64,000 bases of DNA from Mustelus asterias (Eukaryota), in assembly GCF_964213995.1 (NCBI RefSeq), contig NC_135830.1, positions 10,664,001 to 10,728,000 of the forward strand. The letters are read 5' to 3'. A program made the position numbers and the translations under genes. Below, piece after piece: positions 1,371-51,097 of this stretch; position 1 is the first letter of the stretch, and each line of letters begins with the position of its first letter. The notes under the pieces were generated by a model. That model had not been told where the DNA came from. It did not search any database and saw only the letters and a list, made by a program, of their open reading frames with translations.

Positions 1371-1952
1371 TGAAGATCAACCTGTAGCAGGACACCCCTC
1401 CCCGGCCCCGCCCCCACCCACTGTTGAGATATTTGATAAGAACTCCGCTGATATCAAATACGCGGGCATCAAAATCAAAAAGGGAATTCTGGAACATTGG
1501 TTCTTAGTTGTATATATTTTCAATTTCAAAGAATGTGAAAAAGGATATGCAAAATTTTCAATTTCATATAATGTGAAAAAGGATATGCAAAATATTCAGA
1601 CTGTTGAATGGGAACTCTCGACATTGTTACAAGGACAACATTAACTATTTCCCCTCATTGCCACCATCTCAGAAGCTGTCTTGGCGAAAGGTCCAACATT
1701 GCGGTGAATCCTTGTTTCGGTCCCGCTGTGGGGAAAACAACTTCATTGCTTCGCTGGCCCTGCTCTGACGTAATAAACTGGAGGACAAAGGGTCTGTGAG
1801 CTGATTGGATGAATTGGAGAATCAGGGACATGATTGGACGTTACCAGTTGACTCTTTTGGGAATTAACCAATCGCTGGAGAGACCGGATATACATGTAAA
1901 TATCTTCACCCAAACAATTACAGATTAAACCCATTCTGTTTAATTCCGCAAT

Positions 1953-2162
1953 GGGCGGCACGGTAGCACAGTGGTTCGCACTGCTGCTTCACAGCTATCG
2001 GGACCCGGGTTCGATTCCTGGCTTGGGTCACTGTCTGTGTGGAGTTTGCACATTCTCCTCGTGTCTGCGTGGGTTTCCTCCGGGTGCTCCGGTTTTCCCC
2101 CACAGTCCAAAGATGTGCGGGTTAGGTTGATTGGCCATGCTAAAAAATTGCCCTTAGTGTCC
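1953..2162 (+). mobile_element. HE1-like (V-SINE) tRNA-derived SINE, 3'-truncated
   Basis: GGGCGGCACGGTAGCACAGTGG...GGTTCGATTCC head followed by V-domain TGTGTGGAGTTTGCACATTCTCC...CACAGTCCAAAGATGTG. Confidence 0.9.
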
Positions 2163-2407
2163 TTGTTTCAGCTCTTTTGCCTGGTAAGTCTGCAAGGGAC
2201 ATAAATTTCTTCGTGCAAGCGATGTCGACAGTAATTTAATTCCGCTTTCATGCTGATGATAATGTGATCCGTGTCCTGATGTTATGAGTTACAATAGAAT
2301 GATAATAATATCTTATCTTTCAATATTTCTAAATTTCTGCCGGTGCCACGACTGGAGACTCAATATCAAAGGAGCCGGTTACAGCGATGAATTTTGAATG
2401 GGACTCA

Positions 2408-3008
2408 AAGAACAAAGAACAAAGAAAATTACAGCACAGCAACAGGCCCTTCGGCCTCCAAGCCTGCACCGATCACGCTACCCGACTGAACTAAAACCCC
2501 CTACCCTTCCGGGGACCGTATCCCTCTATTCCTATCCTATTCATGTATTTGTCCGGACTCCCCTTAAAACTCACTATCGTATCTCCTTCCATTCCCTCCC
2601 CCGGCAGGCACCCACCACCCTCTGTGTAAAACACTTGCCTCGTACATCTCCTTTAAACCTTGCCCCTCGCACGTTAAACCTATGCCCCCGAGTAATTGAC
2701 TCTTCCACCCTGGGAAAAAACTTCTGACTATCCACTCTGTCCATGCCCCTCATCAGCTTGTAGACTTCTATCAGGTCGCCCCTCAGTCGATCCAGTGAGA
2801 ACAAACCAAGTTTCTCCAACCTTTCCTCGTAGCTAATGTCCTCCCTGCCAGGCAACATCCTGGTAAGTCTTTTCTGTACCGTCTCCAAAGCCTCAACATC
2901 CTTCTGGTAGTGTGGCGACCAAAATTGAAAACTATATTCCAAGTGCGGCCTAACTAAGGTTCTATAAAGCTGCAATATGACTCACCAATTTTTAAACTCA
3001 ATGGCCCG
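2408..3008 (-). mobile_element. CR1 LINE 3' fragment
   Basis: ORF 2574..2975 LYRTLVRPHLEY..QFWSPHY..LGLFSL..RLRGDLIEVYK; (TTCTTTG)n tail at 2408. Confidence 0.92.
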
Positions 3009-3009
3009 G

Positions 3010-3271
3010 TGACCAATAGGTTAACTGCTCAGCAGCTGTTGCATATTACATTCAATTGTATCGCCAGGACCGGGAGAAGGCTCCCAGCAAAAAGAACGGA
3101 GAAAGCCCCCATCTTCTTGATCTGTATCTCTTATTATGGAGATATTTCCGGTGCAGAGTGTGTGGGCATTCGATTTTCTGCATATATCGAGAGGTCGAAA
3201 AGCAAGGGGAATTTCAGCATGTGTCAGCTGTGATTGTCGGACAGCGCGGTGTATTACTGTGGACTGAGAAA
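3010..3271 (+). pseudogene. TCR alpha/delta-like V gene segment pseudogene (5' part lost at CR1 junction)
   Basis: Reads NCSAAVAYYIQLYRQDREKAP / frameshift / KAPIFLICISYYGDISGAECVGIRFSAYIERSKSKGNFSMCQL*LSDSAVYYCGLR: first Cys, (W>L)YRQ and DSAVYYC motifs; in-frame TGA at 3231. Confidence 0.8.
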
Positions 3272-3310
3272 CGCAGTGACAGAAACCAGAGGGAGCCTGG
3301 TATGAAAAGA
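3272..3310 (+). promoter_or_regulatory. degenerate recombination signal sequence, 23-bp spacer
   Basis: CGCAGTG (CACAGTG variant) + exactly 23 nt + ATGAAAAGA directly after YYCGLR. Confidence 0.7.
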
Positions 3311-3359
3311 AAACACTGCCAGAGTGACAGGGTGACCTCTCCATGAAAATGTTAAGGAA

Positions 3360-11111: not shown

Positions 11112-13946
11112 TTGGGGAAGGTATCAGGGTCAGAGGTGGGTACCGGTAGACAGGAAGGTCGGTTGAAGTGTGTCTACTTCAATGCAAGGAGCATCCGGAA
11201 CAAGTTAGATGAACTTGGGGCGTGGATTGGTACTTGGGACTACGATGTTGTGGCCATTACGGAGACGTGGGTAGAACAAGGACAGGAATGGTTGTTGGAC
11301 GTTCCGGGGTATAGATGTTTCACGAAGTGTGGGGAAGCTGGTAAAAGAGGTGGAGGAGTGGCATTGTTAATCAAGGATAGTTTAACGGCTGTGAAAAGGC
11401 ACTTCGAGGGGGATCTGCACACTGAGGTAATATGGGCTGAGGTTAGAAATAGGAAAGGAGTGGTCACGTTGTTAGGAGTTTACTATAGGCCCCCAAATAG
11501 TAATATAGATGTGGAGGAAGAAATTGCTAAGCAGATTATGGATATGTGTGGGGGTCACAGGGTAGTTGTCATGGGGGACTTTAACTTTCCAAATATTGAT
11601 TGGAACCTTTGGAGGTCAAATAGTTCGGATGGGGAAGTTTTTGTGCAGTGTGTGCAGGACGGTTTCCTGACACAATATGTGGATAGGCCGACAAGAGGTA
11701 AGGCCACATTGGATTTGGTCCTGGTAAATGAACCGGGCCAAGTGTTAGATTTGGTTGTGGGAGAGCACTTTGGAGATAGTGACCACAATTCGGTGTCTTT
11801 TGTTATTGCAATGGAGAGGGATAGGGCCGTACGGCAGGGCAAGGTTTACAATTGGGGGAGAGGTAATTATGATGCGATTAGGCAAGAATTAGGGGGCATA
11901 TGTTGGGAACAGAAACTGTCAGAGAAAGGAACTAATGAAAAGTGGAACTTTTTCAAGGAACAAATACTGAATGTCCTTGATAGGTATGTCCCTGTCAGGC
12001 AGGGAGGAAATGGCCGAGTGAGGGAACCATGGTTCACAAAAGAGGTGGAATGTCTTGTGAAAAGGAAGAGGGAAGCTTATGTAGGGATGAGGAAACAAGG
12101 TTCAGATGGCTCGATTGAGGGTTACAAGTTAGCAATGAATGAGCTGAAAAAGGGACTTAGGAGAGCTAGGAGCGGACACGAGAAGTCCTTGGCGGGTCGG
12201 ATCAAGGAAAACCCCAAGGCTTTTTACTCTTATGTGAGGAATAAAAGAATGACCAGGGTAAGGTTAGGGCCGGTCAAGGACAGTAGTGGGAACTTGTGTA
12301 TGGAGTCAGTAGAGATAGGCGAGGTGATGAATGAATACTTTTCTTCAGTGTTCACCAAGGAGAGGGGCCATGTTTTTGAGGAAGAGAAGGTGTTACAGGC
12401 TAATAGGCTGGAGGAAATAGATGTTCGGAGGGAGGATGTACTGACAGTTTTGAATAAACTGAAGGTCGATAAGTCCCTTGGGCCTGATGAAATGTATCCG
12501 AGGATTCTTTGGGAGGCAAGGGATGAGATTGCAGAGCCTTTGGCTTTGATCTTTGGGTCCTCGCTGTCCACGGGGATGGTGCCAGAGGACTGGAGAGTGG
12601 TGAAAGTTGTTCCTCTGTTTAAGAAAGGGAACAGAAATGACCCTGGTAATTATAGACCGGTTAGTCTTACTTCGGTGGTTGGTAAATTGATGGAAAAGGT
12701 CCTTAGAGATGGGATTTACGACCATTTAGAAAGATGCTGATTAATCCGGGATCGTCAGCACGGATTTGTGAAGGGCAAGTCGTGCCTCACAAATTTAATC
12801 GAATTTGTTGAGGAGGTAACTAAGTGTCTTGATGAAGGTAGGGCAGCTGATATCATATACATGGATTTTAGTAAGGCGTTTGATAAGGTCCCCCATGGTC
12901 GGCTTATGATGAAAGTGAGGACGTGTGGGATAGAGGGAAAGTTGGCCGATTGAATCGGTAACTGGCTGTCTGATCGAAGACAGAGGGTGGTGGTGGATGG
13001 AAAACTTTCGGATTGGAGGCAGGTTGCTTGCGGAGTGCCGCAGGGATCAGTGCTTGGTCCTCTGCTCTTTGTGATTTTTATTAATGACTTAGAGAAGGGG
13101 GCTGAAGGGTGGATCAGTAAATTTGCCGATGACACCAAGATTGGTGGAGTAGTGAATGAGGTGGAGGGCTGTTGTAGGCTGCAAAGAGACATAGATAGGA
13201 TGCAAAGCTGGGCTGAAAAATGGCAAATGGAGTTTAACCCTGATAAATGTGAGGTGATTCATTTTGGTAGGACTAATTTAAATGTGGATTACAGGGTCAA
13301 AGGTAGGGTTCTGAAGACTGTGGAGGAACAGAGAGATCTTGGGGTTCGTATCCACAGATCTCTAAAGGTTGCCACTCAAGTGGATAGAGCTGTGAAGAAG
13401 GCCTATAGTGTGTTTGCTTTTATTAACAGGGGGTTGGAGTTTAAGAGCCGTGGGGTTATGCTGCAACTGTACAGGACCTTGGTGAGACCACATTTGGAAT
13501 ATTGTGTGCAGTTCTGGTCACCTCACTATAAGAAGGACGTGGAAGCGCTAGAAAGAGTGCAGAGGAGATTTACCAGGATGCTGCCTGGTTTGGAGGGTAG
13601 GTCTTATGAGGAAAGGTTGAGGGAGCGAGGGCTGTTCTCTCTGGAGCGGAGGAGGCTGAGGGGAGACTTAATAGAGGTTTATAAAATGACGAAGGGGATA
13701 GATCGAGTGAACGTTTAAAGACTATTTCCTCGGGTGGATGGAGCTCTTACAAGGGGGCATAACTATAGGGTTCGTGGTGGGAGATACAGGAAGGATATCA
13801 GAGGTAGGTTCTTTACGCAGAGAGTGGTCGGGGTGTGGAATGGACTGCCTGCAGTGATAGTGGAGTCAGACACTTTAGGAACATTTAAGCGGTTATTAGA
13901 TAGGCACATGGAGCACACCAGGATGATAGGGAGTGGGATAGCTTGA
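11112..13946 (+). pseudogene. CR1 ORF2 (APE endonuclease + reverse transcriptase), three in-frame stops
   Basis: YFNARS, ITETW, MGDFN, SDHN, NYRPVSLTS, GVPQGSVLGP, KFADDT; ORFs 11112, 12768, 12987 and 13734 share one frame, with stops at 12738, 12951 and 13716. Confidence 0.95.
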
Positions 13947-15083
13947 TCTTGGTTTCAGATGAAGCTCGGCACAACATCGCGGGCCGAAGGGCCTGTTCTG
14001 TGCTGTACTGTTCTATGTTCTATGTTCTATAACCTTTCCTTTCAATCTGATTGCAGGACGTATCCCGAACATCAAAGGTTAAAAGCGTTCGTCTGGAAAA
14101 TATTTAAGGGAGCAATGATTTCTACCCCTTCATCATTTCATCATTCTCATCTTCCTTCCAATAATCTCAATCAATTGTACTCAGTCATAAAAGCAAATTA
14201 CTGCGGATGCTGGAATCGGAAACGAAAAGGGAAAATTCTGGCAAGTCTCACAAAGACTGGCAGCATCGATAAGGTGTGAAACGACCTGGCGTTTCGTGTT
14301 GAGATGACATTTTGTAAAAGCTCATTGTGCAATTGTACTCAATATTTGTTTCAATATTTGGTATCAATGCATTATTTAACAAATATGCCTTCATTATGAA
14401 TTGAATATCTCTGAAATTGAACATCACTGAATTGCAAACTTAACTGACCAACAAAATGAATCTTGTCACCGGGTAGTACAGATTGCATTTTTAAGATTGA
14501 ACATAGTCCGTTTTTTTTAAGAAGTCAACGAGATCGAAATGGAAGAGATTTAAGAGTTATCTGCCAGTGACCCTTGAGCCTTTTTTTATTATGGGCGTGA
14601 AACATTCATGCGCATAAATTCCGGCCCTTTACAGGAAAGTCTCGTAGATCCGCATCGAGTCTCGATTTCCTCATCTGTCTGAGTGGCTTCTCGTGTTTTG
14701 GTGATGAAAAACGATTTTTAAAAAGAATCTTCTGTGAAATGTACGCCGTTTCCTCTCGTTCACTTACAGTATCACTTGTATCTGTCTTTTTGAGCACACA
14801 CTACTGTCAGATATTTCAGATGGCGATTAACCATATTAGTCTGCACCTATAAACCCATTAAATTCTGTTGTCGACTGAACGAGATGCGAAAACGTGCTCG
14901 GTGTCAAAATCGAAATTTCCTGTCAGTGCGTCAAAAAAGAAGCGTTTCTTATTTCACAGAAAGCATTTGACGGTGACGTCAGAGCAATGATAACATGCCT
15001 TTCACATTGAAGTTCTGATGATGTTGAGCATCAAACTGAAATAAAGCAATGTTCTCTCACCCGACATGAGAAAGCTGAATGAA

Positions 15084-38486: not shown

Positions 38487-38614
38487 CTTCACCAGAGTGA
38501 CTGCAGCGCTGTAGGACATGCTCAGGAAGAACAGGACGATGAATGTGGAAGCGGTTGTCCAGATTTTGCCGTTATCATCCTCATTGGCTTCAATCCAGAT
38601 GTCGTCTGTGAAGT
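38487..38614 (-). CDS. IGHM: IgM TM1 exon
   Basis: ag|(D)FTDDIWIEANEDDNGKIWTTASTFIVLFFLSMSYSAAVTLVK|gtgaga; antigen-receptor TM motif, phase 1 acceptor, phase 0 donor. Confidence 0.95.
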
Positions 38615-39349
38615 CTAGGGGCCGGAGACAAGGAAATACATTTAGATTACTTGATTGATCTAGAGAATCCTATTGGTAATGTTATATGCCCTCTTCTCTT
38701 TCTTAAGCGATTAACTTATTTTCCAATTTATTTTTCAAAATATCTCAACTATTAAGCTAGTGATACTAAGTAACAGAACTCTGTCATTACCTTCACAACT
38801 GTTCTTCGTTTTTATTCATCAACGTGTGCCAGAAAACACTCAATTTTATTTTCGGTATCAGTTCATTTTCGAACAATTTTGCAGATCTCTTATTGAAGAA
38901 TATTATGATTGATATCGAGGAACGTTCACTGATCAATCATGATTTCTTTAACAAGTGTTTTCAGATCTTTAAACAGTGAATGTTGCTGTTTAAAGATGTG
39001 ATTTCTCATATTCTTTATTTATGTTGGAAATGTTCAGTACATCATTAGCTTCCAGACAGTTTCTCATTACGTACAGTGCTACAGTGTGTTTGTGGATTGA
39101 TTGTATTTTAGGGACAGTTGTCGGAGGATATTTGCATTGAAAAGGTTATGTTTCAAATTTACTTTCATTCATTGCCTACCATTTGTGGTTAAGATTTAGA
39201 ATTTATGTATGGGTGCATGAGCATCTCATGGCCTGCATTCCACTTTGTTTATGAGCTGCTATGTGCGTATGAGTGTTAATATGCATATTCATGTGCCTGT
39301 GGTTTTGATTCGTGCATTCGTGTGCCTGCGTCTCTGTATATATACTTAT

Positions 39350-46307: not shown

Positions 46308-46699
46308 TCAATGACAGGAATTAACGGTGTCCATCAGTGCAAGAGAAATGTTCACAAAACTGGGTTTCCCACTGGATTTATCAACCGTTCTGTTGATGAT
46401 CTTCAAGGGGATAGCTTCATGTCCCACCACACAGGAGTAAGAAGCGCCGCTGGCCCACTCCAACGCTGCAATGGATAACAGACTGTACATGAAGAAGGAG
46501 CTATTGCCGTTCTCCGCCATCACCTTCGTGTTACTGTAGTTCCCGGGATTCACCGGCTTGTCTTTGAAGGTCCACTTGACGAAGATCTCTCGGGGGGAGA
46601 AACCTCTCACTAAGCAGGAGAGGGAGACTATTTTTTGAGCGGAGACTTCTTCTGCCAAGGGCATGAGGACAGAAACGGACGGTTCCCGCGGATTTGGAT
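46308..46699 (-). CDS. IGHM: IgM Cmu4 exon plus secretory tailpiece
   Basis: cag|[43 protein letters not shown]...[43 protein letters not shown]; NIS sequon and penultimate Cys. Confidence 0.97.
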
Positions 46700-46779
46700 C
46701 TGCTGAAAATATATAATAAATGTCAATAAAGTGGAGAGTTCCAGATACAATTCAACGGTAGACCAGAGGCGAGGGGAAT

Positions 46780-48680
46780 GTTTTGGATGTATGGGCTTAA
46801 ATGTTCATCTTTGTGATCTGCCCGGTTTCCCAGTTCGGAGCAGAGATTGATATGCTTTTCTTTGCTCCCTACTGTTCTGGATTTCAATTCTGTACCAGGC
46901 CCTTCCCATCTTACTCCCAGAGGTACAGGGGAAACCAATAAATGCAATGCACTTGGATTTCCATAAAGCATTCAATAGGGAAATGCACAAAAGGCTACTT
47001 AATAAGAAAAGGGGCCATAGTGTTGGCGGTATTATATCATGGATAGAGAATGGGCTAACTAAAAGAATACAGAAAATTTGGATCCGGGGAGCATTTACAA
47101 GATGGCAAACTGTAACTAGTGGAGTGCCACTAGAACCGCTGCTGGGATCAGCATTATTGATGATATATGGAAATGAGGTAAACAAGATAGTTGAATGTAT
47201 AATAGTCAGGTTTGCGGATCGAACAAAATAGGTGGGAAGGCAAGTGATGAGAATTTTGCAAAAAATCTGCGGAGGAATATGAGCAGGTTAAGCAAGTGAA
47301 CAAAAACTTGGCAGGTGGAATATAATGCAGGACAATGTGAATTTATGCACATTGTTGGGAAGAGTAAAGGGGTTGAATATTATTTAAATGGACAAAAACA
47401 GCATAAAGCTGCAGCAACATGCGATTTGGGGATCATCGTGCATATATCACGAACACGAGCGTGCAAGTTCAGCAGGTAATGAGAAATACAAATGGAATGT
47501 TGGGCATCATTTAAAAAGGAATGGAATATAACAGTAGGGGAAAAAGGATAAACGATGCAACCTGGCACAATCTTCAAATGGTGAAGAGTTTTGATCCCAA
47601 TAAATAAGGAAATGACAGAAGTGATTGACGAGGGAAAGGCCGTGAATGTTGTCTACATGGAATTTAGTAAAGCATTTAAAAAGATCCCGCATGGCAGGCT
47701 GGTGCAAAAGGTTCAATAACATGGCATCAAGGGTGAACTCGCTGGATGGAGTCAGAACTAGCTTGGCCATAGAAGGCCGTAGCGGTGGAAGGATGTTTCT
47801 TTTTTCTGAATGGCGGTCCATAACTGGTGGTGTTCCACACGGATCAATGCTGAAACCTCTGTTGTTTGTAATATATATAAATATATATATATATCTTATA
47901 TACATTACTTCAATAACATGCAGCTGGCATCATCAGGAGAGGGAGACTATTTTTTGAGCGGAGACTTCTTCTGCCGAGGGCATGAGGACAGAAACGGACG
48001 GTTCCCGCGGATTTGGATCTGCTGAAAATATATAATAAATGTCAATAAAGTGGAGAGTTCCAGATACAATTCAACGGTAGACCAGAGGCTTATCATCTTG
48101 CGGATGATACTAAGATTGCTGGAACTGCGGATAGTGATGAGGATTGTCAAATAATACAGCAGGATATAGGTAGACTGACAATTTGGGAGGGGAAATGTCA
48201 GATGGAATTTTATCCGGACAAATGCGATTTGATGCATGTTCCTTCGAGGAATGGTTGAGGAGGTCTGCCATGTAACTCATTGGAGATTAGATAAATGTGA
48301 GGCAACCTTATTGAGCTATATATCATGCTCAGGTGTCGGGACAGGGTAGATGCTGAGACGTTTCTTTTCTCCCCTTTTGTGGAAGAGTCTCGGACTACAA
48401 GGTATAATATCTGAGTAAGGGGCTGAGCCATTTAGGAGAGGGATAAGGAGGAATTTCCTCTCAGAGGGTAGTGAATCTGTTAAATTATTTACTACAGTGG
48501 GCTCTAGACGCTGGGTCATTAAGTATGTTCGTAGACAAATTTGTAATCAATAAGGGAATCAACAAATATGGAGTTGGGGCGGGAAAGTGGAGTGCAACGT
48601 TACCCTATCGGATGTGTCATGATCTCACTGAATGCCAGAGCATACTCAAAGGGTCGAATGACTATAACTTACTGCCCATG
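46780..48680 (+). mobile_element. old CR1 fragments filling the Cmu3-Cmu4 intron
   Basis: LDFHKAF, SGVP.EPLLG, GGVPHGSMLKPLLFVIYIN, ADDTKI remnants. Confidence 0.75.
47934..48089 (-). pseudogene. 156-bp duplicate of the Cmu4 acceptor and first 86 nt of the exon
   Basis: Matches 46615-46770 except for one substitution seen by eye; reads [28 protein letters not shown] then TGA TGA. Confidence 0.95.
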
Positions 48681-48900
48681 CTCTTACTCAATCTAAGCCA
48701 ATCTCACCACCTTCAATTCATTGTTCATTCATCAACTTATCAATTTCCCCATTTAAAAAAGTCCGCACGACCAGAGTGTTTAGTTAATGGAATTACCAAT
48801 CAGGAGAGGCCAAAAGAACATGGAATAATACATATTGACTTTACACATATAATGTAAATAGACACAATGGCTCATTAATCGCTCCAATCCCTCCACTCAC

Positions 48901-49209
48901 CTTCTTCCTTGTGGACGGATTTTCTTAAAGGTGTCGGCAGATCCTCATGGTTCGCAATGCAGTCAAACACAGTCCCACTCAGCCAGGCTTGTGTTGAGAT
49001 GTTTAAGTTGCTGACGACGCTGTAAGGATCCTCTCCAGGCTTTTCAGCAATTTCTGATTTCAAAGCCTTCTTGTCTTGGCTCCAGGACACGTTGAGTCCA
49101 TAAGGAGCATGAGATATGACGCAGGTTAAGGTTACAGTAGCCTCCAGTAAGACCTGTTCAATTGGTGGTGGCAGTATTGTCAAGGTGGAATCAGCATTCT
49201 GGTAAGAAT
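48901..49209 (-). CDS. IGHM: IgM Cmu3 exon
   Basis: ttgcag|[31 protein letters not shown]...W...[23 protein letters not shown]|gtgag; 309 nt, open. Confidence 0.95.
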
Positions 49210-49887
49210 CTGCAAAGGAAAAATGAAAATCAACACAAGTTCCATCTTCAGAATCAAGACAACATTATTCAGCCCTCACACTCTAAATGGAATAAATCAA
49301 CTTCGAGATATCAAACTCCAACCATCGCCCTTAATCTTCTATAGTCAATGAAAAACCAGCTTGGTCTGGGAAAACTATTCTCATTGTTAAAATATTTCTG
49401 CTCCACTCCCATTCTAATGAATCGACATTGCAACTTTCCCAATACAAATATATCATTCCTGATCTCAGGAATGCAGTCCTGAACGTTGGTTTATAAATAG
49501 GGTGAATGCACTTTTCAACACATTACCCTAAAGGTGTTACCAGACAACGACATCAGTCCAAATATTATCAGCTGCCTCAGGAATTTCTGTGCATATTAAT
49601 GCATGTCACACTAATAAATGAAATCAAAGGATAAAGCTGGTATCAATTCCACCTCTCTCACTATATGACATCAAAGTATCAAAGTTGGGGGAATCATTTT
49701 TTGCAATTCTGATAAAATCCTGAATAGTGAGCAATCCAAATGGAGCTCTTACATTAGAATGAAACACAAACTACATAGAAATAACTAAGAATTTGTTGCC
49801 TGCAATGTCCTAACTTCAATCATTTTTGGTTTTGATTAAAAGCAGAGCGCAGAGTAACCAATTTCTTTATTGGTCTGTGCCTCTTAC

Positions 49888-50202
49888 CCAGAGATCCAGT
49901 GATGTTTCGACTTTGGAGGAGGCCTTGATGAGTGACCTGGCAGGTATAGACTGCTTTGCTGAACCATTCTCCAGCGGAGACTGTCAGCCCACTGCTCGCC
50001 GAGAGGTTCCCATTCGCATTCCAGGCGGGAGAGGTGACAATTCCTGAATCCATGGGTTGTCCATTCTTCAGCCACTTCACCGTCATTGACTTTGGAAAGA
50101 AACCGATAATTGAACAGATAACGGTTGCAAATTTGCTGCTTGTGATTTCTTCACTGGAACTCACGGTGAGGATAACGGTTGGTGCGATGTCATCTCGAGG
50201 AC
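49888..50202 (-). CDS. IGHM: IgM Cmu2 exon
   Basis: ctgaag|[54 protein letters not shown]|gtaag; 315 nt, open. Confidence 0.95.
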
Positions 50203-50409
50203 CTTCAGAAACACATGTTAATCATTTTCAGCAGAAGATGTTGATCAATCAAATGCATTCTGTATTATCAATTCATTTGCAGTCAATGGACACAAACCTG
50301 GATATTCCAGGGGTCAAGAATATGCAGATCTCTATAAATTAGTTATAACAAATGTCACATACAGGTTAATCAAAGGAATTTTGTTATGTACAATTTCTAC
50401 AACACTTAC

Positions 50410-50709
50410 ATTGCATTTCAATGCTCTTATCTGAACCGCTGTGTCGAACCTCACAGTTGATGTTGCTGCATGCTCCCTCTGACTCGGTGATGGTTAATTG
50501 GCTGCTTAGGGTGTAGGTTCCCTTTGTGTTTCTCATTGATGGGTAAGTCTTAACTCCAGTGGTGATCGGCTGTCCATCTTTCTTCCAGGTCAGCCTGGTG
50601 ATTTCTGGGAAGTAGTCCATCGCCAAGCAGCCGTAGGTGACGGTGCCGTCGGTGTTGTGTTGCTGACAGGAGGAGACCAGGTTGTGGAGAACGAGCGGAG
50701 ACGGTGTCG
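50410..50709 (-). CDS. IGHM: IgM Cmu1 exon
   Basis: ttcccag|[46 protein letters not shown]...[18 protein letters not shown]|gtaag; 300 nt, open. Confidence 0.96.
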
Positions 50710-51097
50710 CTGGGAAAGAATGGCCGATATAACAAGTTAGACTCTGTTATTTGCGATTACTAAGCCAGCAGACATTTCAGGATTTGACCAGAACTGTGAG
50801 GTTATGCTAATATTTCCGAACAAAACCTACATCACATTTGAGATTTTATTTGTGCTATTAGTTAGAAACCATCACCTGTTCCTTCCCTCTGTAGAAACTC
50901 ACATCTCTTTCTCCGTCTCTGTCACATTGGAGAAAAAAAACATTTTGACGTTATCTGAATGACATACATGGCATTGGATCAAAAGAGAAGAGACAGCGGA
51001 TTCTGTCCATCAACTCTGCGACCATTTGTTTCTCAATCATCAACAGTTGGTGAGGAGGAAGTTGTCTCTACATTTATGTCGTTGCAGTTTTGGAAAT

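Follow-up and report, generated by a model that had tools for sequence, protein, structure and literature searches.

A dead TCR alpha/delta V segment of the alphaV10 family among the IgM clusters of Mustelus asterias, probably copied about 40 times as a passenger of segmental duplication

Introduction

In the shark Mustelus asterias, a degenerate V segment followed by a 23-spacer recombination signal sequence (RSS) lies on the plus strand about 35 kb from the transmembrane exon of a minus-strand IgM cluster. The question raised by this locus is which segments such a V gene could have joined. A first-pass annotation proposed that a TCR V placed 3' of Cmu in inverted orientation would join IgH D-J by inversion, or else that the arrangement simply places the IgM cluster at the edge of the TCR alpha/delta locus. 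In elasmobranchs, TCR alpha/delta V exons are described in the accessible text of PMC12227049 as lying between IgH clusters over megabases, and Table S1 of that paper lists both intact and pseudogene TCR V beside IgM, in both orientations, in white shark, catshark and stingray. NAR-TCR chains are described as delta chains, alongside IgHV-TCRdelta chimeras, in the accessible text of PMC5931798 and PMC6795676, and shark TCR loci are called translocons in that of PMC6795676. We analyzed the window, by which we mean the whole stretch of 64,000 nucleotides (G000:C71:10664001-10728000), and followed its V remnant, its IgM neighbors and possible TCR partners through the genome.

Results

Structure of the V remnant and its IgM neighbors

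The features on which the analysis turns are as follows (window positions).

1831..1952, plus strand: 5' flank (promoter region) of the V gene, 89% identical to the flank of relative L071 across 122 nt
1953..2163, plus strand: SINE in place of the start of the leader exon, breaking the L071 alignment
2164..2342, plus strand: 3' end of the leader exon, intron and splice acceptor (AG changed to CG)
2343..2406, plus strand: 5' part of the V exon, about 21 codons, aligning with L071 and L079
2407..3006, minus strand: 3' fragment of a LINE, about 600 nt, within the V exon, with a reading on the minus strand like the end of a reverse transcriptase
3007..3271, plus strand: 3' part of the V exon, ending in YYCGLR, identified by PDB V-set matches with the open paralogue frame P0001 and by the tree
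3086..3110, plus strand: 25-nt insertion (partial duplication) that restores the frame, seen as a gap against L071
3231-3233, plus strand: in-frame TGA stop
3258-3260, plus strand: Cys104
3272..3310, plus strand: broken 23-RSS, with heptamer CGCAGTG (3272-3278), 23-nt spacer (3279-3301) and nonamer ATGAAAAGA (3302-3310)
38487..38615 (ends approximate), minus strand: IgM transmembrane exon, about 35 kb from the remnant
46308..50746, minus strand: IgM Cmu1 to Cmu4 exons and secretory tail, with Pfam C1-set matches
About 64.5-65.6 kb, just past the window end: J, one D (12/12 signals) and a VH with heptamer CCCAGCG

All parts of a split leader and of a V exon that ends at Cys104 without a J were found, and all are broken. 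The match of positions 3007-3335 to relative L071 has a blastn E value of 4e-64 and is therefore not due to chance, and positions 2164-2406 align with the same relative at 77%. Frame +3 of the remnant translates to ...LSDSAVYYCGLR, in which Cys104 is the only canonical V-domain residue, Cys23 and Trp41 being absent; a Pfam scan with a 35-aa piece of the remnant gave no match. A 1-nt deletion near 3021 and the 25-nt insertion are two compensating frameshifts. The heptamer has one mismatch and the nonamer four to the consensus, and the signal scored under the threshold of our RSS scan of the window. Its reading as an RSS therefore rests on homology, the spacer being alignable with the RSSs of the family relatives L071 and L079. 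On these grounds the V-domain remnant with a 23-spacer signal (3007-3310) that the first-pass annotation had reported is real, and so is its distance from the transmembrane exon.

The remnant is not a functional V gene, which would need a start codon, splice sites, an open frame and a CAC heptamer: it has the SINE in the leader, the CG acceptor, the LINE in the exon, the indels, the TGA stop and the CGC heptamer. The first-pass annotation had called this copy dead through a frameshift, a stop, a change of CAC to CGC and a loss of the 5' end. The first three are present, but the 5' end is not lost: the LINE splits the exon and the SINE breaks the leader. Three other copies of the SINE (81 to 86%) lie within the window. 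The LINE fragment, which we take to be of CR1 type, has a related copy at window positions 13462-14028 and another in L071.

The VH of the window's IgM cluster (L031:1240-1580, at about 65.3 kb) has an open frame and the heptamer CCCAGCG, and its D1 is decayed; this cluster is probably unable to use its own V. Another IgM cluster, also on the minus strand, begins 49 kb to the left and has an open VH with heptamer CACAGCG and a 12/22 D. The start of Cmu4 has a second, partial copy in the Cmu3-Cmu4 intron (47936-48007). Seven tRNAs (Arg, Val three times, Ala, Leu and Lys) were called between positions 468 and 31592, and further tRNA-like relics lie between the V remnant and the IgM transmembrane exon. 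Two further TCR V genes on the plus strand, likewise broken, border the IgM cluster of the window: one at L034:6390-6910 (about -3.4 kb in window numbering), which has kept a consensus RSS, and one at L040:1815-2370. Germline-joined IgM VDJ exons were seen at L226:4796-5150 (contig C166, open) and at L229:1303-1800 (C71 at about 11.0 Mb, split by an insertion).

Family identity

The short remnant fragment has antibodies as its top PDB matches, and the near-whole relative P0003 matches TCR alpha chains and antibodies. Among 1.84 billion representatives, the closest single-domain matches of P0003 are two open-frame proteins of Chiloscyllium punctatum (58% and 52%), which were found by a HMMER library search; a word-indexed search found no homologues. 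In a 42-row tree, the remnant, L071, L079 and the two Chiloscyllium V genes form one clade (support 100/98), and the same five rows had formed a clade in an earlier 60-row tree, from which 18 redundant or long rows were then dropped. The clade is nested in the TCR alpha/delta V group (support 91/86, group not starred), and forcing it together with IgH V is rejected (p-AU 0.028). The tree, in which the deep nodes are weak and the reference labels were partly assigned from the look of the sequences, separates the remnant from the V genes of IgH, IgL and TCR-beta and from NAR V. The shark TCR V genes with which the remnant forms this clade keep a consensus-like RSS.

The start of the V exon is identical to the nurse shark alphaV10.1 cDNA at 35 of 42 nt (by-eye count), and homology can be followed by eye along the V exon (PMC5931798, Table 1 source data and Table 7). 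Of the 45 alphaV10 entries in those source data, the six that are shown match the remnant by eye and have an aromatic residue in place of Cys23 and a Leu in place of Trp41. Like the remnant, nurse shark alphaV10 ends in YYCG, and its leader primer is resembled by the leader of L079. According to the accessible text of PMC5931798, alphaV10 rearranges to J-alpha and is expressed with C-alpha, the primers used being able to recover alpha chains only. In this it differs from every relative examined in M. asterias, all of which are broken. Homology at the sequence level thus supports reading the remnant as a pseudogene in the TCR alpha/delta V family whose expressed nurse shark form is alphaV10, and the tree clade together with the cDNA match bears out the TCR alpha/delta identity given by the first-pass annotation.

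The absence of Cys23 and Trp41 is a trait of the family: both are missing in all five clade members, including the open-frame Chiloscyllium genes, and in the expressed nurse shark alphaV10. The alphaV10 family of three sharks thus has a V domain with no canonical disulfide that is rearranged and expressed in nurse shark (coordinates: window 2343-3271; L071 and L079; P0024 and P0029). The accessible text of PMC5931798 does not comment on it, and the titles and abstracts searched held no on-point report of a Cys-less shark TCR V, the primary trans-rearrangement and NAR-TCR papers lying outside that coverage.

Copies of the remnant and their layout

We list at least 42 close copies, 40 of them at 91 to 100% identity from a DNA search in which 40 of 91 candidates were scored and two more from a protein search; the 40 distinct places were counted by hand from coordinates. 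Some may be second-haplotype duplicates, and a twin at C71:5.04 Mb is 99.9% identical to the window copy. The regions C71:4.86-5.12 Mb and C71:10.60-10.85 Mb of the assembly (G000) are inverted duplicates, about 99.9% identical over the pieces compared, and represent either a very recent duplication or an assembly duplicate. The possibility that the remnant is a lone orphan is rejected.

The LINE junction, the 25-nt insertion and the CGC heptamer are present in all 40 of the copies that were examined, while the TGA stop is present in only the six closest. From the lesions common to 40 of 40 copies we infer that the V gene died before it spread. No intact alphaV10-family member was found among the relatives examined: the distant relatives (two sets of 20 and 16 loci, partly the same) are all broken by stops, frameshifts, a lost Cys104 or broken signals. 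Across copies, the flanking LINE, SINE and tRNA-like DNA is conserved as well as the V part. A second broken TCR V, 6 kb upstream, travels with the remnant. The family of this second V includes dozens of copies with open frames; many of them are on contigs dense in V genes, and some are next to IgM.

In 23 of the 42 copies the nearest Cmu4 within 150 kb is on the opposite strand and behind the V, a head-to-head layout, at a distance of mostly 63 to 95 kb; in 3 copies, one of them the near-identical twin of the window copy, an opposite-strand Cmu4 lies beyond the RSS (the inverted 3' layout). Many contigs are short, and this count of 23 versus 3 may be skewed by contig ends. No Cmu4 lies within 150 kb on either side of 13 copies, as judged from a list of 102 Cmu4 places that is itself a lower bound. 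The recurrent unit is therefore a remnant upstream of an IgM cluster and head to head with it, the window copy being also 3' of the next cluster. TCR V and Cmu matches interleave across about 4.5 to 19.4 Mb of contig C71, and the window accordingly lies inside the TCR alpha/delta V field. The fallback reading of the first-pass annotation was thus right to place the IgM cluster with TCR V genes, but not to place it at their edge.

TCR V genes with a leader candidate, an open frame and a consensus RSS were found near IgM clusters in L181 (C166) and L174 (C132), both on the plus strand, and in L179 (C96) on the minus strand. The IgM nearest to the intact V of L181 is a germline-joined VDJ with no free D. 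Two of the open-frame V genes examined are 3' of and inverted to a Cmu4 (within 100 kb), and for these the script found no family-type leader; the inverted 3' V of L174 has an in-frame stop within its leader.

Constant-gene cassettes

A query with a transmembrane exon found 19 places at 74 to 79% and 2 weaker ones (24 of 24 candidates scored), and a query with a C1 exon found 19 stop-free places at 83 to 100% (35 of 35 scored). The two exons are paired in 19 of 19 cases, 3 to 6 kb apart on the same strand, and some of these 19 cassettes are probably second-haplotype copies. The cassettes lie among the IgM clusters, three of them on the contig of the window, at the following positions.

C71:11017500-11047100: cassette with exons at 11.04 Mb
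C71:7112200-7141750: cassette with exons at 7.14 Mb
C71:12244700-12274250: cassette with exons at 12.27 Mb
L154-L163, L169-L173 and L210-L212: the other 16 cassettes, on further contigs

Six C1 exons differ by 2.5 to 11% in DNA, the three on C71 by 2.5 to 4%. Several J segments lie upstream in all six of the cassettes examined; of the cassettes examined upstream, two have a free D with 12/23 signals and two have a V fused to D before a 23-RSS. The D segments carry a 5' 12-RSS and a 3' 23-RSS, and the J segments a 12-RSS. The germline V-D fusions, followed by the 23-RSS of the D, are at L156:5982-6320 and L170:3166-3470; one is a NAR-TCR supporting V and the other has a stop. Two cassettes have, just upstream, Ig-like V genes similar to alphaV9 cDNAs of nurse shark (L232:146-442 and L233:3759-6239); we take these to be TAILV-like, a name that comes partly from PMC12227049 Table S1. 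NAR-TCR V pairs or Ig-like V directly upstream of the cassettes are also the arrangement of the catshark and stingray delta region (PMC12227049 Table S1). NCBI gene models of M. asterias fuse NAR-TCR V domains to the cassette constant gene, the constant domain of which bears automatic database names ("alpha chain-like"). In contigs from runs guessed to be RNA of other organisms, the constant exon occurs in several variants in X2 and X17 and is spliced to the next exon in X2; such contigs carry no copy number and do not count as evidence here.

Both weaker places come after long arrays of J segments, of which 31 were found on C71 at 18.37-18.42 Mb, and from the J array and the transmembrane exon we read them as C-alpha. 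The Ig exon of C-alpha was not located, a Pfam PF09291 search of the genome found no TCR-alpha constant, and neither constant gene matches the peptide of the nurse shark C-alpha primer. No V, D or C match was obtained in the 180 kb preceding the J-alpha array (C71:18.19-18.37 Mb), and on C71 the cassettes are not directly upstream of this array. Based on the D segments and the NAR-TCR and Ig-like V neighbors, the 19 constant genes are likely TCR-delta cassettes. The nearest cassette lies 350 to 380 kb beyond the remnant in the same orientation and offers a cognate partner for the scattered TCR V genes, so that no IgH partner is needed.

Discussion

The remnant is very probably a dead alphaV10-family TCR alpha/delta V that segmental duplications in the antigen-receptor complex likely multiplied, as a passenger, to about 40 copies. 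Its family membership, its lesions, the sharing of these lesions and the interleaving of V, IgM and TCR D-J-C along the contig were directly observed. The ancestor would have been a regular V gene from the dispersed alpha/delta V field, rearranging to TCR J or D-J; the LINE, the SINE, the indels and the CAC to CGC change would have killed it; and blocks of about 60 to 140 kb, with an IgM cluster, its upstream tRNA arrays and TCR V relics, may then have been duplicated, some of them inverted. The position of the remnant 3' of the window's IgM would be a by-product of two tandem IgM clusters, and the remnant is now likely without a role.

The proposal of the first-pass annotation, that a TCR V inverted near IgM joins IgH D-J-Cmu by inversion, reciprocally to IgHV-TCRdelta, and that the remnant is a dead member of a working class, is very improbable. 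It draws on the 12/23 rule, which permits such joining because the IgH D has a 5' 12-RSS; on the intact TCR V genes near IgM clusters in L181, L174 and L179; on the window's VH, whose CCCAGCG heptamer, while D, J and Cmu persist, would leave a free D; and on the opposite chimera, documented in the accessible text of PMC5931798 and PMC6795676. Against it, all 40 copies examined indicate a V gene that had died by the time it spread, the layout 3' of Cmu is found in only 3 of 42 copies, and no intact member of the alphaV10 family was found among the relatives examined. Furthermore, no family-type leader was detected by the script for either of the examined open-frame V genes lying inverted beyond a Cmu4 and the leader of the L174 gene has a stop, the IgM nearest L181 has no free D, and TCR J and D-J partners are available nearby. 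The literature matches listed contain no report of a TCRV-Cmu chimera, the primary trans-rearrangement papers lying outside their coverage. A search of sequencing runs with the intact V of the neighbor family listed no RNA run containing it. In contigs assembled from other organisms (runs guessed to be RNA), intact V genes of the neighbor family were leader-spliced in two runs and attached to a germline RSS in one, and these contigs either broke off no later than the junction or continued into the germline RSS. By the 12/23 rule, a TCRV-IgM chimera remains allowed for other, intact V-gene families.

That the copies have been retained for a noncoding role, as gene-conversion donors or as boundaries between IgM clusters, is highly improbable: although they occupy about 40 places at a fairly constant distance to Cmu4 (mostly 63 to 95 kb), the flanking LINE, SINE and tRNA-like DNA is equally conserved and no intact family member was seen that could receive a conversion tract. 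A non-rearranging V-set gene or an Ig-type V, a reading suggested by the absent Cys23 and Trp41, the RSS too degenerate for the scan and the antibody matches of the short fragment, is scarcely credible and is rejected by the clade with shark TCR V that have consensus-like RSSs, the rearrangement of nurse shark family members to J-alpha and the exon without a J strand.

The presence of TCR V between IgM clusters is already published (accessible text of PMC12227049), and the dead alphaV10-family V is a new example of that arrangement, sharing with it intact and pseudogene TCR V in both orientations among IgM clusters. The accessible text differs from what we see in M. asterias in reporting no single dead V amplified about 40-fold and no set of several TCR-delta constant genes, Table S1 giving one delta constant directly before C-alpha in stingray and catshark. 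With IgHV-TCRdelta trans-rearrangement and NAR-TCR, as described in the accessible text of PMC12227049, PMC5931798 and PMC6795676, M. asterias shares the genomic region and the NAR-TCR V pairs and Ig-like V just upstream of D-J-C cassettes. However, the direction there is from Ig V to TCR D-J-C, and nothing in M. asterias shows a TCR V joined to IgH D-J-C. Inverted V genes 3' of a constant gene are described in general terms in the accessible text of PMC12227049. Human TRDV3 and TRBV30 resemble the window copy in being inverted and 3' of a constant region, but they are intact single genes with a conserved place behind their own TCR C, whereas the remnant is dead, its copies are 3' of Cmu in only 3 of 42 cases, and they keep no conserved position behind a constant gene that they serve.

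For the cassettes, we lean toward a reading in which delta D-J-C left the front of J-alpha and was amplified into working miniclusters amid IgM, using local alpha/delta, Ig-like and NAR-TCR V genes, some of them V-D joined, with the dead V as a leftover of that amplification. The TCR-mu clusters of marsupials and monotremes (accessible text of PMC7615758) would be the nearest parallel to the 19 cassettes, although not to the remnant, and are likewise delta-derived, repeated in clusters, with two-V chains and germline-joined segments; they differ in their independent origin, and the M. asterias cassettes have several J segments each. By title and abstract there was no on-point report of duplicated delta constant genes, primary papers in J Immunol, Immunogenetics and PNAS lying outside this coverage.

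Finding a reciprocal TCRV-IgM chimera would be unexpected; intact V genes close to IgM make the idea open to test, but our observations give no hint of it. Taken alone, the remnant is unremarkable; it marks the multiplication of IgM clusters within the TCR alpha/delta V field and could serve to date or order the duplications. The delta cassettes matter more, since delta is usually described as a single gene and there are many likely cassettes here. If delta cassettes do lie outside the alpha locus, alpha rearrangement would no longer delete delta, which would raise the question of allelic and cluster exclusion in T cells; each NAR-TCR would have its own constant gene, and a T-cell receptor would be encoded in an antibody-like cluster organization.
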